In this document: in pieces, positions 5,841 through 48,462 of the stretch
How the letters are laid out: the number at the start of each line of letters is the position of its first letter
Position numbering within the stretch: the stretch's first letter is position 1
Translations under genes and position numbers: made by a program
Notes under the pieces: generated by a model
The model's input: only the letters and a program-made list of their open reading frames with translations
Databases searched by the model: none
Told to the model about the DNA's origin: nothing
DNA from: a virus
Strand: one strand, 5' to 3'
Length of the DNA: 64,000 nt
Virus record (IMG/VR): IMGVR_UViG_3300029395_000163

Positions 5841-6146
5841 ATGTTAGAGAAGTTATTATCATTATTTGCGGGAATCGGATTAGCAGTATTATTAATTATT
5901 GCAGCAAGCGGAAATTTGAGCAGCCAAAAGCAGGAAGTCAAAGCGGCAACAGAAACCACTATTGCAACAACCGAAAAATCGGAAGCTACAACTGCCGAAA
6001 AATCGGAAGCAAATACAGAAGAAGTATTTAGCAACGGAAACACAAAAGACACAATCAATATGAATACTGTTACAGATTTTGAAGTAGATGGGAATACATT
6101 AATCATCTATACAAATGACGGTAGTGCATACGAATGGGAAAGGTAG
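5841..6146 (+). CDS. Small membrane-anchored or secreted protein with a TTEKSEA tandem repeat (101 aa)
   Basis: N-terminal hydrophobic segment, GAAGGGAGAAG RBS, internal repeat ATTEKSEATTAEKSEA. Confidence 0.5.
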   Translation: MLEKLLSLFAGIGLAVLLIIAASGNLSSQKQEVKAATETTIATTEKSEATTAEKSEANTEEVFSNGNTKDTINMNTVTDFEVDGNTLIIYTNDGSAYEWER

Positions 6147-6155
6147 GTAAGACAA

Positions 6156-6626
6156 ATGAATAATGGACTTTATATGATGATTTCAGATAAGGAAGTAAGA
6201 GAAAACACGAGTAGAACGCCGGTGAGTAACTTATTAATTACATTAACACTTATTATGGTACTTGCGATGAATCCGGTAACCGTAAAAGCGAATACAAACA
6301 AGGATTTATCCGTTGCAACAACATATATTTCGCGGCATTATCCGGGATATAAAGTTCGGTTCGTTCCGGAAGGGAAGCCAAATACGATGAAGCTGCGGAC
6401 TCGCAAGGGAAAACGGATTGTTTATGTAGAGATTTTAAAGTCGCGCGCAAAGGGAAGCCTAAAAGGCAAACGGCGAAGCTGGGGAATCACGGCGAAAGGT
6501 TCGTATATTACATACAATCGGCGGGTAAAAATCGGCAAACGGGTTACTAGCTACTGTATATGGAATCCGAATAGCAATTACACGGACGACGTAGTTGCGG
6601 TAGTAGATAACGGGTTCATTCGCTAA
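6156..6626 (+). CDS. Secreted basic protein (156 aa) with a signal-peptide-like N-terminus
   Basis: Hydrophobic stretch LLITLTLIMVLAMNPVTVKA, then a K/R-rich body. Confidence 0.5.
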   Translation: MNNGLYMMISDKEVRENTSRTPVSNLLITLTLIMVLAMNPVTVKANTNKDLSVATTYISRHYPGYKVRFVPEGKPNTMKLRTRKGKRIVYVEILKSRAKGSLKGKRRSWGITAKGSYITYNRRVKIGKRVTSYCIWNPNSNYTDDVVAVVDNGFIR

Positions 6627-6707
6627 ATCGGAAGGCAAACGAGAAATAGGGTGGTACCGCAATTTAGCAAGGGAAACAAGCTTGATTTTGGTAAAGGAGG
6701 AATAGAA

Positions 6708-7388
6708 ATGGGATTAAAGGCAACAAATAATCTTCTTGGAATTGAAGACATAAGAGAGGAGTTGTTTTCATACTGCACAGCAACTTCATGTGGGGAATGT
6801 CTTTTTAAATTGTCATGTGATTTTTACGATATGGATGAAGAAGAAATTGAAATATACTATGCGTTAATTTTTGAGACAGATGAAATGAAGAGAGAAGATA
6901 AGGCGAAACTGATTTATGAGGTACAATGGCTTAAACAACATTGCTATAGAGGATGTGAAAATTGTGCTCTTGTTGATGTCGAGGATTGTTCTTGCTTTGA
7001 TAAAGAAGAAATTATTCATAGAAACTTTGATGCGATAATGAAAAAGAGAAAAGAAATTTTGGAATATTGCAAAAAACATAGCTGTGTTAGTTGTGCTGCG
7101 AATGATATATGCAATCGTAATATTGATCTCGACGACCCAGAGGTCTCTGATTCCTATATAGAGAGAGTTTACAAAAAAGCACTGAAAACCGTGCAGAATC
7201 ATGGGAAAGATGAGAAAACAGACACCAAAGTAAGAATAGAAGGCAAAGCAGATTCGGAAAATATTATACTGGAAAATTCAGCGGAAAACGAAACCGTAAT
7301 TAAAATTTCTTCAAACAGGAAAATTGATAACGTTACAATAGTTTTTGCAGAAGAGAAGGGAGAAAAGCACGATGGCGTACAGAAATAA
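6708..7388 (+). CDS. Cys-rich repeat protein (226 aa) with three CxxC-containing modules. Paralogous domain to 8350..8973.
   Basis: ORF-track ORF is 6651..7388. Met at 6708 follows AAAGGAGGAATAGAA. Motifs YCTATSCGEC, HCYRGCENC, YCKKHSCVSC. Confidence 0.5.
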   Translation: MGLKATNNLLGIEDIREELFSYCTATSCGECLFKLSCDFYDMDEEEIEIYYALIFETDEMKREDKAKLIYEVQWLKQHCYRGCENCALVDVEDCSCFDKEEIIHRNFDAIMKKRKEILEYCKKHSCVSCAANDICNRNIDLDDPEVSDSYIERVYKKALKTVQNHGKDEKTDTKVRIEGKADSENIILENSAENETVIKISSNRKIDNVTIVFAEEKGEKHDGVQK

Positions 7389-7749
7389 TATGAACCCCAT
7401 GAAGTTAATATTGGTAGTGATTTTTGCGGCAGTAATCGTATCTATGACGTTAACTGGCTGCAAAAAATGTGTGTCAACAGAATATGAATATGTTCCAGTA
7501 AAGATTATAGATGCAAAAAGACGATCGGCTTATTCATATCCAGTAAGAGTAGGGAAAACAACGTCAATTAGAGTTGTTCCTGCGTCATATAATACAGTCG
7601 TTGAGTATGATTCTGTGGAATATTCCCTTAGCAGTTCAGAAACGTATTACAAATACCGGGATAAAATCGGCAAAACCGCAAAAGGGAAATTAGAAACAAA
7701 GCGTTACGATGATGGAAGTACAAAAGTCCGAATTGTATCGCTAGAATAA
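7372..7749 (+). CDS. Lipoprotein (125 aa) with an LTGC lipobox
   Basis: ORF-track ORF is 7345..7749. Met at 7372 follows GAAGGGAGAAAAG. Signal plus lipobox VSMTLTGCKK. Confidence 0.5.
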   Translation: MAYRNNMNPMKLILVVIFAAVIVSMTLTGCKKCVSTEYEYVPVKIIDAKRRSAYSYPVRVGKTTSIRVVPASYNTVVEYDSVEYSLSSSETYYKYRDKIGKTAKGKLETKRYDDGSTKVRIVSLE

Positions 7750-7759
7750 GGAGGGAATT

Positions 7760-8311
7760 ATGATTTCACATATAAGATTATTTAAAATAAAGAGAGTTGG
7801 AGATGCGACATACGGCGAATTAAAAGCGATAGAAAGCTACCTAGCGTGGCTGAAATTAGAAAGGGAAATTGATTTTGAAGAGTATTCTCCTTTCAGGGAA
7901 TGTCATGTTAGAAAAGAATTGCTTTCGTTGTATAAAACGACGTACTTTTCGAATATTTGGGATTTTGAAAAATCGGCGGAGACAGTCGCAGAGCTTCCGC
8001 GTGGGAATTGTGCTTATGAATGGATTCTACGAAATAACCCCGAGATGTCTTTGTGTGGAGTCTATGAAATCACCAAAAGGGAAATAGAAAATTTGACAGA
8101 TGATTGTTCAAAAATGCTATTTTTTGTGAATATCAATCTAGAAAACATAGAGGATCTTCAAGACATGGTAACGGAATCGCTTCTCGGGTTTTATGATTAT
8201 GTAGCCGACTATGCATATGTATTACAAAATGTGCTTTGTATGCTGAAAGCAGTACTAAAAGAAACTAATTTCGAAGATGAGATGATACTGTACGAATATG
8301 TTTTAGAATAA
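7760..8311 (+). CDS. Hypothetical protein (183 aa)
   Basis: TAAGGAGGG RBS. Confidence 0.55.
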   Translation: MISHIRLFKIKRVGDATYGELKAIESYLAWLKLEREIDFEEYSPFRECHVRKELLSLYKTTYFSNIWDFEKSAETVAELPRGNCAYEWILRNNPEMSLCGVYEITKREIENLTDDCSKMLFFVNINLENIEDLQDMVTESLLGFYDYVADYAYVLQNVLCMLKAVLKETNFEDEMILYEYVLE

Positions 8312-8349
8312 ACGGTTAGTAAACTTAAAATAAGGAAAGGTGGGATTTT

Positions 8350-8973
8350 ATGGGATTATTTGATTTTTTGAAGAAAAGAAAACCGGAAGAAGTCAATGAG
8401 AGTACAGAAAAGATAAATGAAGTAGAATATCTGCCGGAACTTCCTCCGATGGAATTCAAAGAGATGAGAAGAATATTAGCTACATTATGTATGATTGAAT
8501 CAATAGAAGACTGTATGTACTGTCCTCTTGATGGAAATTGTCCTTTTTATAGGAAAACGCAGATTTGGGATATTAACGAAACGGAAGCTCGTCATCTTTG
8601 CGAAATACTTTTAAAGAAAGGAGTTCTTGATTACTATACAGATATAAAAATCAACAACGAAGACAGAAAAGAGGAACTTCAAGTATACTGCAATCATGTT
8701 AAATGCGAAAATTGCATTATGGCAAATAGAGGAAGCTGCGATTTTGATTCTATGACCGATAATAGAGAGATTCGTGCTCTTTACGAAGCAGTCTATTACG
8801 GGGAGATTGAACAAGCGGAAGAATATCTAAAGCAAAGAGTTCAGTTAATTGGAGAGGAGTTGGCGGTGGAGTTACCAAAAGATGTGGAAGACAAAAACGT
8901 AAAAATAACTTTTGTTAAATGTGACAAAACCAGAAGCGAACTGAAAGAACGCAAGAAAGGAGAGTCGAAATGA
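8350..8973 (+). CDS. Cys-rich protein (207 aa). Same Cys-module family as 6708..7388.
   Basis: Motifs DCMYCPLDGNCPFY and YCNHVKCENCIMANRGSC. Confidence 0.5.
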   Translation: MGLFDFLKKRKPEEVNESTEKINEVEYLPELPPMEFKEMRRILATLCMIESIEDCMYCPLDGNCPFYRKTQIWDINETEARHLCEILLKKGVLDYYTDIKINNEDRKEELQVYCNHVKCENCIMANRGSCDFDSMTDNREIRALYEAVYYGEIEQAEEYLKQRVQLIGEELAVELPKDVEDKNVKITFVKCDKTRSELKERKKGESK

Positions 8974-38565: not shown

Positions 38566-41500
38566 ATGACAATCTTAGATTATGCAGTTAAAGCGAAAGA
38601 ACGGCTTGATTTTGTTTTCCCGTATGACTTAAAAGAATGGCTCGGAGATATGAATATGCTGATGGAAAACTATCATAAGCATACAACATGGTCTGATTTG
38701 GTTCAGATTGATTCCGCTACGAGCATGGAAGAATTTATAGAGTATTCAAAAGATTTGGGTTGCAAGAATTATTTTTCTGGAGAACATGGATATCAAGGGG
38801 AATGGCTTGCGGCGTATGACTTATGCACTCAAACAGGAGTAAATTTTAGATATTCAGTAGAAGCATATTGGGTAAAAGATATAAATAGTGTTACCACAGA
38901 AGAGTACATAGACAAAAAAGGAAACAAAAAAATAAGAGAAAAAAAAGACAATATGAATTGCCATATGATGATTGTTGCAAGGAATTACAAAGCAATGAGA
39001 AAGCTAAACTACATGATTTCGGTGGCTCATCAGGAAGGATTTTATTATAAGCCGCGAATCGACTTAAATATGCTTTTTGAGCTAGACGAAGATGACGTTT
39101 ATATTACATCTGCCTGCATTGCTGGGTGGAAATATGAGGATGCAACCGAAATTTGGTATAGAGTTGCAAAACATTTTGGAAGCAGCTTTTTTCTCGAATA
39201 TCAGGCAAACAATACAGATGAACAGAAGAAAATCAACAGTGTTATCTACGAGCTTTCTCAATCAGCCGGAATTAAAACAATTATTGGTTTGGATACTCAC
39301 TATATCAGTGAAGAAGATAGGATTAAAAGAGATAACCTTTTAAAGAGAAAAGGAATTCGATATCCCGAGGAAGATGGCTGGTATATGGATTTCCCGACTG
39401 GAACAGAAGTGTTTCAAAGAATGAATGAGCAAGGGGTTATACCTCCGGAAGAAATCATATATGCGATGATGAATACTCACGTATTTAACGAAGGATGTGA
39501 AGATCTAAACTACAATACAAAATTCAAAATACCAATCTTAGAAAAATACAAGGGTAAATCTTACGAAGAGAGATCGAAAATTTTGCTGGACTTGCTCAAC
39601 AAAAAATATAATGAAGAAGATTTTGAACATAGAACAGAAGACAGAAAAGAAGGTATGCTTTATGAATATTCTGAGATAGACGGAAGCGGAACGGTCGATT
39701 ATTTCTTAGATAATTACGAGCTTATTGATTTGGCGGTTAATAAATATGGAGGACACATAACTACTACTTCAAGAGGAAGTGCGAGTTCATATTATTCAAG
39801 TAAATTACTTGGATTTACAACTATGGATAGATTCGAAGCGGAAGTTCCTATTTACCCAGAAAGGTTTGTAACAAAGGACAGAATATTAAATTCCCATCAA
39901 ATGCCAGATATTGATATTAATTGCCAATCACAAGAGCCATTCGTTTTGGCAGGCAAAGAACTATGTGGAGAACATGGTTGTTATCCATTACTTGCTGTTG
40001 GTAGACTGAAGGAGAAGAACGGATTTAAGCTTTACGCGGGAGTGAACGGAATTGAACCTTCAGTAGCAAATGAAATTACTAAAAGTATTGATCGATATAA
40101 TGAGGCTCTCAAAAATGCAGAAGAAGAGGATAAAGACCTTATAAATATTGAAGATTATATTACAGATGAATATCATTTACAATTATTCAATGAAAGTAAG
40201 TCATATCAGGAAATCATTGAACAAGCGAAGGTTCATGCTTGTGGTTTTGCTTTATTTAACGGAGTTATTGGAGAAGAAGATGTTCCCGGATATGGAGATA
40301 TTCGATATGAGATAGGACTTATTCGTTGCCATTCCGAAAGTACAGGAAAGACAACCATTGTTGCAAATATTGAAGGAAGTTTGCTTGATAAATACGGATA
40401 TGTAAAAGACGATTTCTTAATCGTAGATGTTGTAGGTATTATACATAAGCTGTATTCAGCGATTGGGCGCGAAGTTCCGACTGTTACAGAATTAAGAAAA
40501 ATGGTAACTGATGACGAAAAAACATGGAAGATGTACGAAATTGGTGCGACATGTTGTTTAAATCAGTGCGAAAAAGCTTCTACTACTAAAAAGGTCATGA
40601 AGTTTAAACCGAAAAATATTAAGGAATTAGCTGCATTTATTGCAGGCATAAGACCCGGGTTTAAATCACTGATAGACGGATTTTTGGATAGAGTGGAGTA
40701 CACGAACGGAGAACCGGCAATCGACGATTTGCTGGAAGATTGTTTTCATTACATGTTGTACCAAGAAGCAGTAATGAAGATTTTTTCGTGGCTCGGAATC
40801 GAAATGAAAGATAGTTACGACACGATAAAGAAAATCAGCAAAAAGAAATTAAAAGGCGAAGCACTGCAGCACGTAGAAGACACGTTAAGAGAACATTGGT
40901 TACAAAATATCGGGAATCTAGATAATTTCGAACCAGTGTATAAAGTAATTAAGGATTCGGCGAGATATAGCTTCAATGCTCCTCATGCTCTGGCAATGGC
41001 GAACGACAGTTTATATGAAGCGTGGATGAAAGCGAATTATCCGTCTGTATTCTATGAAGTAACATTGAATCACTATCAAGAAAAAGGAGATAAGAATAAA
41101 GTCGCTGAGTTGATTCACGAAGCTAGAGTGGTTTTCGGCTATAAAATGGGAACCTATGAGTACGGCAAAGATAATACGAAATTTACGGTAGATGATTCAG
41201 ATAAGATTATTTATCCTAACTTATCAAGTGTTAAAAGCATTGGAGATAAAGCGGTAGAGGCTATGATGGAAATATCTAAAACTGATAAAAAAGATATTCT
41301 TGATATTTACGCCGCAATAAAGGGAACAAAAATAAATTCATCTGTATTCAGAAAACTTGTAAAGATTAATTATTTCAAGCAGTACGGAACTATTAAGTAT
41401 ATACTTCGATGCTTAGATGTTTACGACAAATGGGCGGGCAGAAAAACCATTTCAAAATCAGATATCCCGCAGTTAGGGTTACAGAACATAAACCTTAAGA

Positions 41501-41997
41501 AATATACAACAGATGTAACTCCAAAAGGAAATATAAGTAAAAAGAGATTGGTTATTTACGACATAATGGGGTTAATAAAGTCCATATGTTCGAATATATC
41601 AGAAGAAGAATTCCCGTCTCCAATCATGGCTCAGTTCCAGTATGAGATTCTTGGGTATATAGATTATAGGGACGAAGGAGTGATGGATGGATATAGGACG
41701 GTATGCGTAACCAATTTAGACACAAGATATTCCCCTAAATTTGATGCATATTGTATTAAGAATGGGGAGATTTCGGAAATGAAGATTCACAAGAAAAAGA
41801 ACTTCAGGGATAAAAGATGCAAAACCAGCTTTCAAGATTTAAAAATCCAAGACGGAGACATTATTTATATACGAGACTGCAAAAAAGAACCAAAAAGGCG
41901 AAAAACGGACAATGGATGGGAAGACATTCCAGATGCATACGATTGGTGGATTAAAGATTACGATGTCTTGTATAAAGCACATAAGGAGGCAGCTTGA
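38566..41997 (+). CDS. dnaE: DNA polymerase III alpha subunit (DnaE/PolC-type, PHP domain plus polymerase core), 1143 aa
   Basis: PHP motifs near the N-terminus (HKHTTWSD...GEHGY) and the FNAPHALAMANDSLYEAWMKANYP finger motif. Confidence 0.8.
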   Translation: MTILDYAVKAKERLDFVFPYDLKEWLGDMNMLMENYHKHTTWSDLVQIDSATSMEEFIEYSKDLGCKNYFSGEHGYQGEWLAAYDLCTQTGVNFRYSVEAYWVKDINSVTTEEYIDKKGNKKIREKKDNMNCHMMIVARNYKAMRKLNYMISVAHQEGFYYKPRIDLNMLFELDEDDVYITSACIAGWKYEDATEIWYRVAKHFGSSFFLEYQANNTDEQKKINSVIYELSQSAGIKTIIGLDTHYISEEDRIKRDNLLKRKGIRYPEEDGWYMDFPTGTEVFQRMNEQGVIPPEEIIYAMMNTHVFNEGCEDLNYNTKFKIPILEKYKGKSYEERSKILLDLLNKKYNEEDFEHRTEDRKEGMLYEYSEIDGSGTVDYFLDNYELIDLAVNKYGGHITTTSRGSASSYYSSKLLGFTTMDRFEAEVPIYPERFVTKDRILNSHQMPDIDINCQSQEPFVLAGKELCGEHGCYPLLAVGRLKEKNGFKLYAGVNGIEPSVANEITKSIDRYNEALKNAEEEDKDLINIEDYITDEYHLQLFNESKSYQEIIEQAKVHACGFALFNGVIGEEDVPGYGDIRYEIGLIRCHSESTGKTTIVANIEGSLLDKYGYVKDDFLIVDVVGIIHKLYSAIGREVPTVTELRKMVTDDEKTWKMYEIGATCCLNQCEKASTTKKVMKFKPKNIKELAAFIAGIRPGFKSLIDGFLDRVEYTNGEPAIDDLLEDCFHYMLYQEAVMKIFSWLGIEMKDSYDTIKKISKKKLKGEALQHVEDTLREHWLQNIGNLDNFEPVYKVIKDSARYSFNAPHALAMANDSLYEAWMKANYPSVFYEVTLNHYQEKGDKNKVAELIHEARVVFGYKMGTYEYGKDNTKFTVDDSDKIIYPNLSSVKSIGDKAVEAMMEISKTDKKDILDIYAAIKGTKINSSVFRKLVKINYFKQYGTIKYILRCLDVYDKWAGRKTISKSDIPQLGLQNINLKKYTTDVTPKGNISKKRLVIYDIMGLIKSICSNISEEEFPSPIMAQFQYEILGYIDYRDEGVMDGYRTVCVTNLDTRYSPKFDAYCIKNGEISEMKIHKKKNFRDKRCKTSFQDLKIQDGDIIYIRDCKKEPKRRKTDNGWEDIPDAYDWWIKDYDVLYKAHKEAA

Positions 41998-42529
41998 TAT
42001 TTTAGATTTATACAAATACACAGATAAAGAAAAGGAATTATTATTAGAATCTATGGTTATTTTGATAGACACAAGAGAGAAGAAAATAGATCATATAATT
42101 AGCAGTTTCGATAAAGCTGGGATTAAATACAAAATAAAGACATTAAAATATGGAGATTACAGTTTTTTGCTGACTAAAAATCCCGAGCTGGGAATTCCGA
42201 GAGACATATCTTTTGAAGGAAAGGTAGTCGTTGAAAGAAAAGGCAGTTTAGAGGAGCTGTCTACGAATCTAACAAAAGGAAGAGATAGGATTGAAAAGGA
42301 GTTTGCTCTTGCCCCATATGAAAAAGTCTTGCTCGTAGAAAACGCCGGCTATTCAGACATAGCGGATGGGAACTACAGAGGAGATTATAATAAAAAGTCT
42401 TTTCTTGCATCAATTCATACATTTTGGTTTAAATATCATATCCCTGTATTCTTCATGCCGGATCACAAATATTCTCCGCTTTTTATTAAAAAATATTTCG
42501 AATATTATTTAAAAAATTATATGAGGTAG
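41912..42529 (+). CDS. ERCC4/XPF-Mus81-type (restriction-endonuclease-fold) nuclease. Start is uncertain; the TAAGGAGG at 41982 suggests initiation near 41999.
   Basis: Motif order IDTREKK ... GDYSF ... VVVERKGSLEELSTNL matches the D..RE / GDY / ERK..DL..S pattern of the ERCC4 domain. Confidence 0.45.
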   Translation: MDGKTFQMHTIGGLKITMSCIKHIRRQLDILDLYKYTDKEKELLLESMVILIDTREKKIDHIISSFDKAGIKYKIKTLKYGDYSFLLTKNPELGIPRDISFEGKVVVERKGSLEELSTNLTKGRDRIEKEFALAPYEKVLLVENAGYSDIADGNYRGDYNKKSFLASIHTFWFKYHIPVFFMPDHKYSPLFIKKYFEYYLKNYMR

Positions 42530-42532
42530 ATT

Positions 42533-42736
42533 ATGAAAAATTACTTAGTATCAGCAAGAATTGTTCTTCCCGTATTAGATGTAGCTAACAAAGACGAAGC
42601 CGAAAACTTCATTAGAAATACTTTTAGAGCGTTCTCTCCAAGATTAAATTTAGACATTTATGCGGTTGATGATTTCGATGACATAACAATAGAGGACGAA
42701 TCAGAGAAAAAACAAGAGGAAATTCAGAAGATATAA
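42533..42736 (+). CDS. Small acidic protein (67 aa)
   Basis: ORF with a GAGGTA RBS. Confidence 0.45.
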   Translation: MKNYLVSARIVLPVLDVANKDEAENFIRNTFRAFSPRLNLDIYAVDDFDDITIEDESEKKQEEIQKI

Positions 42737-42757
42737 TTGCAGAAAGGGGATGGTTAT

Positions 42758-43495
42758 ATGTTCATGATAACAGGAGATACTCACGGAGACTGGATAAGAA
42801 GATTAAGGAAGGAATCTTTTCCAGAGCAGAAAGTCATGACTAGAGACGACTATGTGTGTATTGCCGGAGATTTTGGAATCTGGAATAATTCAGCGGAAGA
42901 AAATTATAAGCTAGATTGGCTGGAAGAGCGTAATTTTACGACTTTATTCGTTGAAGGAAATCACAGCAATTATGACATATTAGACAATGTTCCTGTAAAA
43001 ACGTGGAACGGCGGAAAAGTACATTTTATTCGTCCGCATGTGATTCATCTCATGAGAGGACAAGTTTATAACATCGACGGGAAAAAGATATTTACTTTTG
43101 GCGGCGCAAAAAGCCACGACATCCAAGATGGGATTCTTGAGATAGGAGATTCAAGGATTAAAAAGTGGATAGCTGACCCGTACAAGATGTTTCGAGTCAA
43201 TCATTTGAGCTGGTGGAGTCGTGAACTACCAAATGATGCAGAAATGTTAGAAGGAATTCATAATTTGGAGGAAAATGACAATATAGTAGATTATATTATT
43301 ACTCATTGCACATCTACTTCTTTACAGGACAAAATGTCTAATGGATTTTTCAAATCAGATAAGTTAACTGATTATTTCGATAATATAAGGGAAAAGACAG
43401 ATTTTAGTTGCTGGATTTTCGGTCATTACCACGATAATTTGAAGGTAACTGAACGAGATATATGTTTGTACGAACAGATAGTCAGATTATTTTAA
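42758..43495 (+). CDS. Calcineurin-like metallophosphoesterase (245 aa)
   Basis: GDTHGD, GDFG, GNHSNYD and GHYHD motifs. Confidence 0.65.
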   Translation: MFMITGDTHGDWIRRLRKESFPEQKVMTRDDYVCIAGDFGIWNNSAEENYKLDWLEERNFTTLFVEGNHSNYDILDNVPVKTWNGGKVHFIRPHVIHLMRGQVYNIDGKKIFTFGGAKSHDIQDGILEIGDSRIKKWIADPYKMFRVNHLSWWSRELPNDAEMLEGIHNLEENDNIVDYIITHCTSTSLQDKMSNGFFKSDKLTDYFDNIREKTDFSCWIFGHYHDNLKVTERDICLYEQIVRLF

Positions 43496-43505
43496 GGAGA
43501 AATAT

Positions 43506-44000
43506 ATGAAAAGACAAATTAGAAGAAATGTTTTCGAAACCAATTCAAGTTCAATGCATAGCTTATCAATCAAAGGAAGAAAGGGAATAACGGAGTATCT
43601 CCCTGTAGATACGGATAGCAATAAAGTAATTACGAAATTTGGTGAATTTGGGTGGGGATACGAAAGGTACAAGGACCCAGAAACTAAATTATCATATCTT
43701 GCGACGATGCTTATAGAAACGCATCCATTTTGTTTCTCTCTCGAAGAATTGTATGAAACTGAAGATTTCAAGAAAATCAATGACGTTGTTGCTTCAAGAT
43801 GTAAATGTGACGGAATCATAATTAATGAAGAAATAAAAGAGGTTTGCTATGAAGGTATGAGCTGGGCAGACCACGATGGCTATATTGATCATCTATCAGT
43901 AAAAAGAATAGACGATTTGATGAAAGAATATGGCTGCACAATAGAAGAATTTATTTTCGATAAAGGAATTAAGCTGATAATTGATAACGACAATCACTAG
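43506..44000 (+). CDS. Hypothetical protein, paralog A (164 aa), with a conserved N-terminal 25-aa tag
   Basis: MKRQIRRNVFETNSSSMHSLSI... shared with 44010..44420. TAAGGAGAA RBS. Confidence 0.55.
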   Translation: MKRQIRRNVFETNSSSMHSLSIKGRKGITEYLPVDTDSNKVITKFGEFGWGYERYKDPETKLSYLATMLIETHPFCFSLEELYETEDFKKINDVVASRCKCDGIIINEEIKEVCYEGMSWADHDGYIDHLSVKRIDDLMKEYGCTIEEFIFDKGIKLIIDNDNH

Positions 44001-44009
44001 GAGGAATAT

Positions 44010-44420
44010 ATGAAAAGACAGATTAGAAGAGGGACATTTGAAACTAATAGTAGTAGCACCCATAGTTTGTCAATCTGTAGCGAAGAGAAATTCAATCAGT
44101 GGGAAAATGGAAAGCTCGCTTATAGAGAGTATGAAGATGAGTTTGTAAAGATTCCAGATTTATCGCGAGACGAAAAAGAAAGAGCTCGACAAGATTACGA
44201 GGATCACAAAGATGAGTACGCTAAAGACTGGGATGAGTTATCTGAGGATTTAAAAGAAAAATATTATACTAAATATTCAGAAGATATTCATGCTGAGGAT
44301 ATTGATGCAGAGACCTTCAGAGAATGGAGTCATGATTGTTATCTTGAAACGTTTGTAAAACATTATACTACAGAAAGTGGAGATAAAATCGTTGCGTTTG
44401 GAAAGTGGGGATATGAATAA
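44010..44420 (+). CDS. Hypothetical protein, paralog B (136 aa), with the same N-terminal tag and a divergent acidic body
   Basis: MKRQIRRGTFETNSSSTHSLSI...; the nucleotides differ at synonymous sites. Confidence 0.55.
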   Translation: MKRQIRRGTFETNSSSTHSLSICSEEKFNQWENGKLAYREYEDEFVKIPDLSRDEKERARQDYEDHKDEYAKDWDELSEDLKEKYYTKYSEDIHAEDIDAETFREWSHDCYLETFVKHYTTESGDKIVAFGKWGYE

Positions 44421-44467
44421 TAGCAAGATGATTTGAGTTAGTAAGAGTATTTTTGGAGGATATAAGA

Positions 44468-45364
44468 ATGGAACTGTTAGGAAAATATAAAAATGGAAAT
44501 TATACCGTTTCAATTTTTTCGGACGGTACAAAAGTCAGAGAGACAAACGAGGATTGGTTCTGTCCGGAATGGGCTGAAAATATGGATATAAAGATAACGA
44601 ACGAATGTTCTATGAATTGCGCTTTTTGTCACGAAGGAAGCACTCCAGCCGGAAAACACGGAGATATCCTAAATGAAAAATTTGTTGACACGTTGCATCC
44701 ATATCAAGAAGTCGCAATCGGCGGCGGAAACGTATTAGAACATCCAGATTTAATTTTGTTTCTTGAAAAGCTTAGAGATCGAAAAGTGATTGCAAATATT
44801 ACAGTTAACCAAGTTCATTTTGAACAGAATTTTAAACTTATCCAAAAGCTTGTAAGCGAAAAACTGATTTACGGGCTTGGCGTTTCACTGGTAAATCCGA
44901 CAGGAGATTTTATATCAAAAATTTCTACTATACCAAATGCAGTAATTCACGTAATTAACGGAATTTTGAAGCCAGAAGATATTGAAAGCTTAAGAGATAA
45001 AGATTTAAAGATTTTGATTCTTGGATATAAGCAATTAAGAAGAGGATTTGATTATCTTATCGAATCTTATGAAGAAGTAAGAGAAAACCAGAAGTGGCTG
45101 TACGATACTCTTTCGGATATCCTTTCAATGTTTAAAGTCGTGAGTTTTGACAATCTCGCTATTGAGCAGCTCGAAGTAAAAAGACTCGTGAAAGACGACG
45201 AATGGGAAGAATTTTACATGGGAGACGATGGAAATTTTACTTATTATATAGATATGGTTGAAAGAAAATTTGCCCAAAGCTCAACTGCTCCGTTCGATAA
45301 GAGACACGACTTGTTGGATTCAGTGGATGAGATGTTTAAAATAATTGGAGTCACCCATAAATAG
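44468..45364 (+). CDS. Radical SAM enzyme (298 aa)
   Basis: CSMNCAFC (Cx3Cx2C) near residue 50 and GGGN, with GGAGGA 7 nt upstream of the ATG. No SPASM-like extra Cys cluster. Confidence 0.65.
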   Translation: MELLGKYKNGNYTVSIFSDGTKVRETNEDWFCPEWAENMDIKITNECSMNCAFCHEGSTPAGKHGDILNEKFVDTLHPYQEVAIGGGNVLEHPDLILFLEKLRDRKVIANITVNQVHFEQNFKLIQKLVSEKLIYGLGVSLVNPTGDFISKISTIPNAVIHVINGILKPEDIESLRDKDLKILILGYKQLRRGFDYLIESYEEVRENQKWLYDTLSDILSMFKVVSFDNLAIEQLEVKRLVKDDEWEEFYMGDDGNFTYYIDMVERKFAQSSTAPFDKRHDLLDSVDEMFKIIGVTHK

Positions 45365-45372
45365 GAAGAAAT

Positions 45373-45954
45373 ATGAATTACTACATAAGCGATACTCACT
45401 TAGGTCATAAAAATATTATGAAGCTCGATGAACAGGACGGCGGAAGACACTTTGAAAATATTGAAGAACATGACAATTTGATCGTTGAAAACTGGAACAA
45501 AACAGTAACATCAAGCGATAAAGTATATATCCTCGGAGATTTTAGCTGGATGAATGCTCGTGATACGGAAGAGATTCTTCGAAAGCTTAATGGAGTGAAA
45601 TTCCTTATAAAAGGAAATCACGATGGATGGAGTGAAAACAGTAACTGTAGAGGATATTTTCAAGGAATTTATGATTATAAAATGATTAAAGATAATGGTA
45701 GGAAAGTTGTTTTGAGTCATTATCCGATTCTTTTCTATCAGAATCAGCATAAAGGAGCGATTCATTTGTACGGACATGTCCATAACACAAAGGAAGAGGA
45801 ATTGTTCCAAATAGCAATCACAAATGTTTCCTCAGACATAGGTATCCCAGTGAATTCTTATAATGTAGGCTGTATGCTTAAACATATGGATTACACTCCG
45901 AGAACTTTAGATCAAATCCTAAAACAGAAGGAAGATATAATAATTAGAAAATAA
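45373..45954 (+). CDS. Calcineurin-like metallophosphoesterase (193 aa)
   Basis: SDTHLGH, GDF, GNHD and GHVH motifs. Confidence 0.65.
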   Translation: MNYYISDTHLGHKNIMKLDEQDGGRHFENIEEHDNLIVENWNKTVTSSDKVYILGDFSWMNARDTEEILRKLNGVKFLIKGNHDGWSENSNCRGYFQGIYDYKMIKDNGRKVVLSHYPILFYQNQHKGAIHLYGHVHNTKEEELFQIAITNVSSDIGIPVNSYNVGCMLKHMDYTPRTLDQILKQKEDIIIRK

Positions 45955-45988
45955 AGATTACTTGATAGATAGGGAGGTTGTTGCGAAA

Positions 45989-46357
45989 ATGCACGATAAA
46001 ATATTAATATTGGCAGCTATGATTCTGGGACATATTTTAGCTGATTATAACCTACAGGGTTGGCTTGCTTCTGCAAAGCAGAGAAAATACTGGAAAGAAA
46101 ACGCTCCTAAGAAAATGTATCAATACGATTATATCATGGCATTATTTATGCATAGCTTTTGCTGGACATGTTTAATAATGATACCGGTACTGATTAGTGA
46201 GCAGCATATTTATTTTTGGATGTTAGCTTTTCTCAATACCGCAATACATATGTATGTGGATAATGAGAAGGCAAATAAAGAAACGATAAATTTAGTTGAA
46301 GATCAAATTATTCATTTAATTCAAATATTTTTAACTTGGAGCATACTCATATTGTAG
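45989..46357 (+). CDS. Polytopic membrane protein, DUF3307-like (122 aa)
   Basis: HILADYNLQGW motif and four hydrophobic helices. GGGAGG precedes the ATG at 45989. Confidence 0.45.
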   Translation: MHDKILILAAMILGHILADYNLQGWLASAKQRKYWKENAPKKMYQYDYIMALFMHSFCWTCLIMIPVLISEQHIYFWMLAFLNTAIHMYVDNEKANKETINLVEDQIIHLIQIFLTWSILIL

Positions 46358-46607
46358 TAACAGAAACCATTAACGCCAAGTATGGATTAAAGAACAGGTT
46401 TAGTTTTATAGCGATTATGGTAATTATAGTAATCAGCGGTTTATTTGATTTTTCTGGTAAATGGTTAGTGGAATATATCTTTAAATGGAGACATATCAAT
46501 GGTTGAGTTAAATAAGTTATCTACATGTTATAGCAGAGACAAACCACTGCTCGAAGATTTTAATTATAAGTTTAATACGAGAATGTATGAGATATTAGGA
46601 GAAGTAT

Positions 46608-46907
46608 ATGGATAAAGCTGCATTATTTATGGATATGCCGGAAACCTGTGCGGAGTGTATGTTTTCTCGAAAGCTACCAGGAGGGATTACTGCTTGCTGC
46701 GAGATAGAGTCCGAGCCGTTAAATGAACGTCTTTGCAGGGTAATTGATCTAAAAGCCGGATATTTCAAGAAAAGGCAGACATGGTGTCCTCTGAAGAGAT
46801 TCTCAGGCGTAAAATGTGACAAATGTTTCAATATTTTTTTGCACGGGTATCAGTGCGGATGGGATGACTTTAAAAGACAAATGTTAAATGATGAGATGGA
46901 GGAGTAA
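46608..46907 (+). CDS. Cys-rich small protein (99 aa)
   Basis: CAEC, CC, C..C and CDKC motifs. Confidence 0.5.
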   Translation: MDKAALFMDMPETCAECMFSRKLPGGITACCEIESEPLNERLCRVIDLKAGYFKKRQTWCPLKRFSGVKCDKCFNIFLHGYQCGWDDFKRQMLNDEMEE

Positions 46908-46911
46908 GCGC

Positions 46912-47616
46912 TTGAGAAAGAAGAAGGAAACAATCGAAGTTCTAGAACAAGAAGAATTAAGGAATTTTATAAAATTTAGCCCCCAAATAGCCAAATGCAA
47001 CTTATGTAATAATGACCCGCAGATTATAAAAAAGACAGGAGTTGATAAGTACGGGTTTGAAGAAGCGAAATATAAAATATATTGTCCGACTTGCCAAGTA
47101 GGAACAGGATTTTCTTCATTTAATGGTACGGCAATAGATAAATGGAATAAGAAAATGTCTCCCATTAAGTATAAAGATTGTCACATATATGCGTTTACTC
47201 CGTCGGACGAACAATCAGATATTCTAATGGAAGACTATAAGCTTAACTTCTCGTTGCGAGAATATGAGATTGTTCATGGGAAGGGAGGAAGTCACTTTTT
47301 GTACTATATATACGACAAAAAAGAGCGAAAACTGAATCAAGATATTTTTGTCGATGATGTCGCACTATATGGTGCTAATTCGTTTTCCATGTTTATAGAT
47401 GGAATCCCTAAATTTAAAGTTTGCGTTGTTATTGCTAACAATAAAGAAGATGCAGCGAAAATGCTAAATAAAAGATTAGGAGATTTTTTTAAAGAGGGTA
47501 GAAAAACTTTAAATAAAAAGATAGAGAATTATGAGGAACTTTTGCATAATGCAGAACTTAAACTAAAAAAATACAATGACTATATAAACGAAATTTCAAA
47601 AAATAACAGCTTATAA
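46912..47616 (+). CDS. Lar-family-like zinc-ribbon domain (restriction alleviation type) fused to a roughly 150-aa C-terminal domain (234 aa)
   Basis: CNLCNN......YKIYCPTCQVGTGFSSFNGTAIDKWNKK resembles the Lar signature (C..C ... C..C ... A...WN). TTG start with GGAGGA at 8-nt spacing. Confidence 0.45.
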   Translation: MRKKKETIEVLEQEELRNFIKFSPQIAKCNLCNNDPQIIKKTGVDKYGFEEAKYKIYCPTCQVGTGFSSFNGTAIDKWNKKMSPIKYKDCHIYAFTPSDEQSDILMEDYKLNFSLREYEIVHGKGGSHFLYYIYDKKERKLNQDIFVDDVALYGANSFSMFIDGIPKFKVCVVIANNKEDAAKMLNKRLGDFFKEGRKTLNKKIENYEELLHNAELKLKKYNDYINEISKNNSL

Positions 47617-47631
47617 TATATGGGAGCGGAT

Positions 47632-48462
47632 ATGCAGAATATAAAAGATTATTGGACAGGCAAAGAAAAAAGAGCGGAAATTGCGAAAGTTCATACGAAA
47701 GAGATGGAAGAAAAATACTCGAAAGAAATAAAGTATTCCATTAAAAATACAGAAATCTGCAATTCTATAGATATCTTAAAAACAGAAAAAGAAGAGACAG
47801 AGAACACTACGGTAGAGGCTCAAATTTATGTCTGCGATATAGATACAGTTGGAGCAATTTTAGAGTTCGCTTCAAAAGATAAAAGAATTGCGGCTTTAAA
47901 TTTTGCTTCATACAAAAATGCCGGCGGAATGTTTATTAAAGGAAGTAGAGCGCAGGAAGAATGTCTCTGTCACGAGTCATTTTTATATAATGTGCTAAAA
48001 GAAGCGGAGCCATATTATGAATTAAACAGAAAAAGTAAAAATCATGCATTATATCATAACAGAGCCCTTTATTCTCCAGATATTATTTTTGAAAGAGAAG
48101 GCAAAATATGTTATTGCGACGTAATTACTTGTGCCGCTCCTAACAAGAGAGCAGCTCAAAAATATTGTAACGTCTCTGATGAAGAAAATTCGAGGGTTTT
48201 AGAATCGAGAATTGATTTTGTCTTAGACATAGCAAAAGGGCATAAAATAGATATTCTGATCCTTGGCGCTTTCGGATGCGGAGTTTTCGGACAAAGCGGA
48301 GAGGAAGTTGCAAAAATATTTCATAAGCTGTTATTGCGAGAAGAATATGGTTGTTTTGAGAGTGTCGTATTTGCTGTTCCTGCAAGTAAAAACGGGAATT
48401 TTCAGAGCTTTTACGATTGCTTTAGCGGTGAAATTTTAGAAGTGAAACATAATAGTCGATAA
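47632..48462 (+). CDS. Macrodomain protein of the bacterial-type poly(ADP-ribose) glycohydrolase family (DUF2263/TIGR02452-like), 276 aa
   Basis: LNFASYKNAGGMFIKGSRAQEECLCHESFLY matches the PARG signature GGG-x6-8-QEE. Confidence 0.6.
   Translation: MQNIKDYWTGKEKRAEIAKVHTKEMEEKYSKEIKYSIKNTEICNSIDILKTEKEETENTTVEAQIYVCDIDTVGAILEFASKDKRIAALNFASYKNAGGMFIKGSRAQEECLCHESFLYNVLKEAEPYYELNRKSKNHALYHNRALYSPDIIFEREGKICYCDVITCAAPNKRAAQKYCNVSDEENSRVLESRIDFVLDIAKGHKIDILILGAFGCGVFGQSGEEVAKIFHKLLLREEYGCFESVVFAVPASKNGNFQSFYDCFSGEILEVKHNSR

Follow-up and report, generated by a model that had tools for sequence, protein, structure and literature searches.

A motif-tagged protein family and its radical SAM partner in a phage genome: a split two-domain enzyme and the possible role of its N-terminal tail

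The DNA analysed here is a stretch of 64,000 nucleotides from IMG/VR virus record IMGVR_UViG_3300029395_000163 (the window). It contains two adjacent open reading frames, ORF A and ORF B, whose products begin with nearly the same peptide (the tag), followed by a gene for a radical S-adenosylmethionine (SAM) enzyme, rSAM. The locus raises the question of what an N-terminal peptide common to two different proteins has to do with the enzyme encoded beside them. Comparative sequence analysis shows the tag to be motif I of an undescribed domain of ~150 aa, the obligate partner of one rSAM clade, and ORF A and the rSAM gene to be the separated halves of an enzyme found elsewhere as one polypeptide. 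The rSAM gene is best explained together with ORF A and ORF B as a single conserved cassette; taken as a whole with the role proposed below for the tail of the tagged proteins, this explanation has an even chance of being correct. The genes and their motifs are as follows.

43506..44000, + strand: ORF A, 164 aa, the A-type tagged protein and free-standing counterpart of the N-terminal domain of the fused rSAM family
43506..43571, + strand: N-terminal tag of ORF A (motif I), MKRQIRRNVFETNSSSMHSLSI, from BLASTP, codon comparison and sequence logo
43638..43658, + strand: motif II of ORF A (FGEFGWG); E47 invariant and F45, F48 and G49 nearly invariant in the ORF A alignment
43875..43892, + strand: motif IV of ORF A (DGYIDH); G125, D128, H129 and S131 invariant in the ORF A alignment
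43983..43997, + strand: motif V of ORF A (DNDNH, C-terminus); D162 invariant and N163 nearly invariant in the ORF A alignment
44010..44420, + strand: ORF B, 136 aa, the B-type protein with tag, acidic helical insert and terminal hairpin, without motifs IV and V
44010..44075, + strand: N-terminal tag of ORF B, MKRQIRRGTFETNSSSTHSLSI, from BLASTP, codon comparison and hhalign
44391..44417, + strand: C-terminal hairpin of ORF B (VAFGKWGYE), a possible motif II remnant on weak BLAST and trimmed hhalign evidence
44468..45364, + strand: rSAM gene, starting with ATG, 298 aa, the catalytic half of the split system
44606..44629, + strand: putative [4Fe-4S]/SAM cluster motif C47-x3-C51-x2-C54 (CSMNCAFC), read directly in the sequence

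ORF A and the radical SAM protein as a split two-domain enzyme

The initial annotation had taken the third gene for a radical SAM enzyme from its cysteine motif, and by sequence its product does belong to this superfamily. The three cysteines of the CxxxCxxC motif that marks the superfamily are invariant in 22 rSAM homologues and in the fused family described below. The protein matches PF04055 with an E-value of 3e-6 (27.9 bits, the gathering cut-off being 29.5) and phrog_16999 with an E-value of 2e-45, and precomputed PF04055 matches exist for the fused homologues. A SAM-binding GGE-type motif is present and conserved in each form, as A-I-G-G-G-N (GGGN) in the window protein and as GGGEP in the fused family. 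Sequence and profile searches of the PDB reveal similarity to solved rSAM structures at the generic core only. The rSAM alignments contain no fourth invariant cysteine and therefore indicate no auxiliary cluster. Neither a RiPP (ribosomally synthesized and post-translationally modified peptide) recognition element (RRE, PqqD-like) nor a SPASM or twitch domain was found in the rSAM above noise in Pfam/NCBIfam.

The relationship between the enzyme and ORF A is revealed by proteins in which both are joined. In Salmonella phage Arash, gp146c (477 aa; L197:2515-3945) consists of an A-type domain, with the motifs MYLTQIRYGFATNSSSSHS .. GYGWD .. GYIDHES .. GGNDN, followed by an rSAM domain. This protein is annotated as a ‘methyltransferase’ in GenBank; no methyltransferase domain is seen in it and it is actually a fused A-type/rSAM enzyme. 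Each of its 120 listed homologues (435-570 aa) covers 92-100% of the Arash protein, and the CxxxCxxC motif is present in 120/120 and the N-terminal motif in 118/120 of them. The contigs that encode fused enzymes are large and phage-like or plasmid-like, and some are filed under the names Methylobacterium, Thermoanaerobaculia and Promethearchaeota. ORF A aligns with positions 12-153 of the fused profile over 134 columns that include all five of its motifs (hhalign probability 98.2), and the window rSAM aligns with positions 181-485 (probability 100, E-value 3e-40). As the two proteins align to the two halves of the fused family, profile comparison shows that together they represent a split version of one two-domain enzyme. 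Additional tagged genes are not carried by the fused loci, paralogue arrays being seen solely where the partner is a separate gene, and no further conserved partner gene was found in the neighbourhoods of the fused enzymes.

ORF A has 718 full-length homologues, which share five conserved motifs: F-E-T-N-S-S-S-x-H (I), FGEFGW (II), K-L-S-Y (III), DGYIDHQS (IV) and a C-terminal DNDNH (V). The G-W of motif II and the D-H-x-S of motif IV are invariant in the fused family also, and motif V aligns with its invariant GGNDN. ORF A, ORF B and seven other tagged proteins gave no match in Pfam, NCBIfam or PADLOC, and a search of the tagged proteins against PHROGs gave phrog_28997, of unknown function, as the sole match. 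Sequence and profile searches of the PDB with ORF A also gave no match. From AlphaFold2 (AF2) models of the ORF A and ORF B monomers, both predicted folds are apparently new. The combination of a profile match and an alpha/beta fold that would place the proteins among the HAD, metallophosphoesterase, SGNH or histidine phosphatase families, known for N-terminal catalytic motifs, was not found. Several candidates were weighed and rejected because their motif order, fold or profile support was wrong, namely SGNH, HAD, histidine phosphatase, DEDD-exonuclease and ASKHA proteins, pyruvoyl or Ntn self-processing, cobalamin-binding, and triceptide or HxS motifs. No description of the tag motif or of a tag/rSAM system was found in the family libraries or the searchable literature, and the main text of the transcriptome paper on phage Ma-LMM01 is silent on gp128-130.

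The ORF B family comprises 882 homologues, all of ~137 aa and ending in VAFGxYGY. The near identity of the ORF A and ORF B N-termini reported at first is borne out, with 19/22 residues identical over positions 1-22 (pairwise BLASTP E-value 2e-10). The accompanying statement that the proteins then diverge completely is largely correct, in that the tag region alone aligns confidently when the two families are compared profile to profile (hhalign probability 98.8). A second, weak match links residues 36-53 of ORF A (..NKVITKFGEFGWGYE) with the C-terminus of ORF B (..GDKIVAFGKWGYE; pairwise BLAST E-value 0.033). A trimmed profile–profile comparison of the motif II hairpin of ORF A with the ORF B C-terminus gives an E-value of 0.005 at a low hhalign probability (6.7%). 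These matches are suggestive, not proof, that the terminal hairpin of ORF B is a remnant of motif II, and the layout of the protein suggests that it is a cut-down paralogue of ORF A in which the N-terminal module and an acidic insert end at this hairpin. The bodies cannot therefore be described as otherwise unrelated: ORF A corresponds from end to end to the N-terminal domain of a two-domain rSAM enzyme, and ORF B looks like a fragment derived from it.

The tag and its linkage to one radical SAM clade

The initial annotation had suggested a survey of related genomes for the tag on further proteins, and many were found. A tag profile of 32 residues, searched against 1.84 billion representatives clustered at 50% identity, matches 3,885 protein clusters. 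In nearly all of the matches listed the tag spans residues 1-31, and it is almost never internal or C-terminal. This superfamily has no entry in Pfam, NCBIfam, the PDB or the literature. In a logo built from 184 distinct tagged proteins of the fetched loci, R is conserved in 100%, F in 99%, E in 100%, T in 96%, N-S-S-S in 99-100% and H in 100%; the search pattern prescribed E, N, the serines and H but left R and F free. Residue 11 lies immediately ahead of TNSSS in 169/184 of the split tagged proteins and in most of the fused ones. It is Glu in 100% of split forms, where the pattern required it, and Ala in 100% of fused forms. The segment T12-N-S-S-S-x-H18-S19 is invariant in split and fused forms and lies at an equal distance from Met1 in both; the invariant Arg is nevertheless shifted by a one-residue indel. 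One representative in the library, P0291 (395 aa), carries two tag motifs in a single ORF, first C-type and then A-type with its own MKK start, and is either a true fusion or an artefact of stop-codon read-through or recoding.

The peptide rather than the DNA appears to be what is maintained. Between ORF A and ORF B, the 22 tag codons comprise 12 identical, 7 synonymous and 3 non-synonymous pairs, and the synonymous differences include TCA/AGT and TCA/AGC serine switches. The 247 distinct DNA copies of the motif that were compared (51 nt each) use the full set of six Ser codons at every one of its three invariant serines and draw on both families of Arg codons at the invariant Arg. This variety at invariant residues means that selection acts on the peptide and not on the DNA, in agreement with the earlier proposal of purifying selection as opposed to recent gene conversion.

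The tag and the rSAM are found together from whichever side the search starts. In the IMG/VR loci a tagged ORF directly adjoins the rSAM at 27/27 loci anchored on rSAM, and an rSAM is present at 79/80 loci anchored on ORF B-type genes, the lone exception being at a contig end. The motif pattern was matched at 70/80 loci from genomes and metagenome-assembled genomes (MAGs); 2 more have the variant ETNSSI[DE]H, 5 lie on truncated contigs and the last 3, from Christensenellaceae, are without the motif. Among 50,697 phage records the tag occurs in 24 (15 Lak and 9 Microcystis phages), which are exactly those with a full-length close rSAM homologue, and in each 540-kb Lak genome all 3-5 tag copies adjoin the rSAM. 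The tagged genes form tandem arrays of 1-6 beside the one rSAM clade: in Lak-C1 the rSAM is followed by five tagged genes, and locus L004 has three. In the cultured phage Ma-LMM01 the pair is formed by gp130 (A-type) and gp128 (rSAM), and in Rhodothermus phage RM378 by gp106 (A-type, with the variant ..L-S-T-N-S-S-S-S-H-S) and gp108 (rSAM).

The tagged proteins span 90-330 aa and have very different bodies, all of which retain the tail, as the tagged N-terminal segment is called here. C-type bodies (~240 aa) contain divergent versions of the ORF A motifs, and there are several other body types besides A to D. D-type proteins (200-330 aa) have a conserved C-terminal cysteine cluster, C..YF..GCL..C.CGF (L156:7057-7995, L171, L186, L166, L170), that by its sequence could bind a metal or an Fe-S cluster, and a D-type gene is often the sole tagged gene beside the rSAM. 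Hidden Markov models of the bodies alone found a B body without an A body at 68 loci, an A body alone at 20 and neither of the two at 52, and the ORF B type is shown to be the commonest pared-down form of the partner. A single partner may be A-type (Ma-LMM01 gp130), B-type (L132, L138) or D-type (L156 and others).

The role of the tail

In the AF2 models of ORF A and ORF B residues 1-15 are unplaced, with a predicted local distance difference test (pLDDT) score <50, as against more than 85-90 for the bodies. Acidic bodies (median pI 4.6) and an acidic rSAM (pI 5.0) contrast with a basic tail (+2.5). These features, like the residue 11 pattern and the constant place of T12-N-S-S-S-x-H18-S19, suit a flexible tail that docks and holds out an invariant core. 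Only the rSAM and the tail recur in all of the systems, from which we infer that the tail is the part of the tagged protein that engages the enzyme. Residues 1-11, which are basic and hydrophobic and include Glu11 in the split forms only, would dock the tail. A contribution of Glu11 to binding energy only when the partners meet in trans would fit its presence in split forms and its replacement by Ala in fused ones. Docking would then place T12-N-S-S-S-x-H18-S19, with its fixed distance from Met1, in or at the rSAM active site. This segment would most probably be the target of the 5'-deoxyadenosyl radical, leading to modification of a protein client or installation of a cofactor on Ser/His, and the variable bodies would set what each modified protein does. 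That the cassette works with its tail engaging the rSAM, most probably as the site of radical chemistry, is a proposal whose chances are evenly balanced. It is possible that the tail is a substrate and possible that it is a docking element, and of the roles first offered for the tag both a recognition peptide for a modifying enzyme and a shared active-site N-cap are possible. A fuller version envisages a widespread, mostly phage-borne modification system, in which a minimal rSAM acts on T-N-S-S-S-x-H-S, kept exactly 11 residues from the client N-terminus, to give a new protein-derived cofactor, crosslink or stable radical and the client bodies have diversified into effector arrays; this would be a tentative extension and is rather unlikely as it stands.

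Several points weigh against a modified tail. The modification, the complex and the activity are all deduced from sequence. It is unusual for an enzyme to be stably fused to its own substrate, fusion being more typical of two cooperating catalytic domains. The A-type domains hold further invariant polar motifs (DHxS, GGNDN, K..Y), and these could form an ordinary active site together with the tag. The low AF2 confidence of the tail could result from a missing ligand or from a shallow alignment (25-30 sequences). Most peptide-modifying rSAM enzymes typically possess RRE and SPASM/twitch domains, which are absent here. Finally, three rSAM relatives from Christensenellaceae (44-47% identity) truly lack a tagged neighbour. 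They are preceded by a 292-304-aa ORF and a 309-aa ORF (L163, L167, L172; MAG contigs, ~6000-8900) and may represent a cellular offshoot with a different partner.

The main rival to the modified tail is a composite active-site cap. The tag would here be no more than the catalytic or ligand-binding loop that comes first in the A-type domain, capping an active site made up with motifs IV and V. The domain would be a second enzyme module sharing the metabolite of the rSAM, for example a hydrolase or a small-molecule/nucleotide binder, and ORF B and other truncated paralogues would be subunits, either regulatory or degenerate, in which the loop has been retained for assembly. Four more invariant polar motifs common to A-type and fused proteins (G-W, K..Y, D-H-x-S and G-G-N-D-N) are of the kind seen in active sites, the fusion of domains is typical of cooperating catalytic modules, and the cassette is surrounded by genes of nucleotide and DNA metabolism. 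However, in many systems the sole partner is of B- or D-type and lacks those polar motifs, the tag is hardly ever internal or C-terminal among the matches listed for the 3,885 clusters, and the tail is not packed onto the body in the AF2 models. This explanation is judged unlikely, while keeping a substantial chance.

Less well supported is the synthesis of a small molecule on a protein scaffold, as for pyrroloquinoline quinone (PQQ) or mycofactocin, where the rSAM would convert the Ser/His of the tail and the A-type bodies would excise a diffusible cofactor or antimetabolite. An invariant short peptide beside a dedicated rSAM does recall the established PqqA/PqqE and MftA/MftC pairs, and the polar motifs of the A-type bodies are hydrolase-like. 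The putative precursors are, however, large and folded, no conserved protease, transporter or RRE partner was found nearby, and PQQ and mycofactocin derive from C-terminal cores, at the opposite end from the tail. This route is improbable.

Capsid targeting in the manner of the T4 internal proteins IPI-III had been put forward by the initial annotation, and can largely be discarded as very improbable. The first 11 residues (..V-F-E) would here send the proteins into the prohead and be cleaved off after Glu. T4 targeting sequences end in hydrophobic-x-Glu, a pattern, though only a pattern, that the prefix MKRQIRRNVFE fits, and T4 internal-protein loci likewise consist of tandem genes with a common N-terminal peptide of ~10 residues and divergent bodies. 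Unlike those peptides, the tag is strictly linked to an rSAM across unrelated phages and cellular-assigned contigs. The motif is identical in lineages as unrelated as Lak, Microcystis and Rhodothermus phages and phages binned with Lachnospiraceae genomes. The phage-like or plasmid-like contigs on which it heads fused rSAM enzymes include some that were assigned to a bacterial or archaeal genome or MAG. The Glu11 at the would-be cleavage site is lost to Ala in all fused forms, and conservation runs on beyond this site. In addition, fused gp146 was not among the 116 proteins found in Arash particle preparations (PMC10585845).

A recent tandem duplication or gene conversion without special meaning, for which the adjacency of ORF A and ORF B might speak and which the initial annotation had itself considered, is ruled out to near certainty by the excess of synonymous over non-synonymous tag differences (7 to 3), by the absence of detectable similarity elsewhere except for one hairpin, and by the age of both families.

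Related systems and the surrounding genes

The genetic architecture of the cassette is well supported. Two groups of known systems would be its closest functional analogues: rSAM maturases or activases that act on protein clients, and rSAM enzymes whose accessory domain can be detached. In the first group (PFL-AE with PFL/GrcA, anSME with sulfatases, QhpD with QhpC) a dedicated rSAM is likewise coupled to proteins with a common short invariant motif, a flexible client segment could enter the partial TIM barrel, and one enzyme can have several clients. The present system differs in that its motif lies at the very start of the protein, with constant spacing from Met1, and in that the enzyme and its ‘client’ are often fused. 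Glycyl radical enzymes are not a match, since the RVxG[FWY] signature was not found: ORF B ends in FGxYGY and ORF A has FGWGY, both outside an R-V-x-G context, and no glycyl-radical-enzyme model is matched. Nor does the tag resemble the formylglycine clients of anSME, its S-S-S-x-H differing from (C/S)xPxR; the rSAM has three invariant cysteines and no SPASM or auxiliary clusters. In the second group, which includes the cobalamin-binding class B and RRE-containing enzymes, an accessory domain similarly precedes the rSAM core and split and fused versions are equivalent. In contrast to these, the A-type domain matches no known sequence or fold and, once split off, has radiated into paralogue arrays.

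The tie between the tag and the rSAM, proposed earlier as RiPP-like or as a protein modification, stands as a functional tie, with near-perfect co-occurrence in both directions and fusions in its support. As a classical RiPP system it is rejected. RiPP precursors and their rSAM maturases (PqqA/PqqE, MftA/MftC) do resemble the cassette in that tandem genes with a common conserved N-terminal segment lie beside the rSAM, and the tag has an apparent docking part (1-11) and an invariant part (12-19). The partners, however, are not short precursor peptides but proteins of 90-330 aa whose bodies AF2 folds with confidence; the modified part would be the conserved one and not a variable core; and no RRE, protease or exporter was found.

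The tag and rSAM are found in Lak megaphages, other large phage-like contigs of gut metagenomes, cultured cyanophages (Ma-LMM01), the thermophilic RM378, Arash and plasmid-like elements. The fused/split relationship provides a clear, testable enzyme–partner pair, for which Arash (gp146) and Ma-LMM01 (gp128/gp130) are cultured, tractable carriers. Action of the rSAM on the tail would, if true, be a previously unrecognised post-translational modification spanning ~3,900 protein clusters. Knowledge of the chemistry could bring to light a new type of radical SAM reaction or protein-derived cofactor, and could account for a ‘dark’ module that recurs in large phage genomes.

ORF A and ORF B, the only tagged ORFs in the window, are separated by 9 nt, and a spacer of 47 nt follows ORF B ahead of the rSAM gene. 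A GGAG-type ribosome-binding site precedes ORF A and ORF B. No terminator or promoter enrichment was found in 41800..46600, which fits co-transcription without being evidence for it. With the 125-kb phage contig IMGVR_UViG_3300045988_149622 the cassette shares 98-99% protein identity, and the window is therefore from a close relative of this phage (>100 kb).

The cassette is bracketed by two different calcineurin-like metallophosphoesterases (42737..43495 and 45373..45954, + strand), and upstream of it lie an ERCC4-type nuclease (41912..42529) and a PolIII-alpha-like polymerase (38566..41997). In unrelated phages the cassette has RNA-repair-type genes close by: L004 (1-3830) contains RlaP, a CCA-adding enzyme and a DHH/DHHA1 phosphoesterase, RM378 a poly(A) polymerase (L196:1211-2296) and Arash an RNA ligase (L197:4362-4814). 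In Ma-LMM01 gp131 (L195:3058-3858) is recorded as a ‘histidyl tRNA synthetase’; it has no Pfam match at an E-value of <=0.01 and the annotation looks doubtful. Further along the window a 242-aa ORF (46888..47616, + strand) has a Cys-rich N-terminal region with a weak match to the Lar restriction-alleviation family (PF14354, E-value 7e-4, below cut-off). It is followed by a 280-aa ORF (47620..48462, + strand) with a microbial-type poly(ADP-ribose) glycohydrolase (PARG; macro-like) catalytic domain (PF10021, E-value 2.3e-28), which may be a phage enzyme that removes ADP-ribose.

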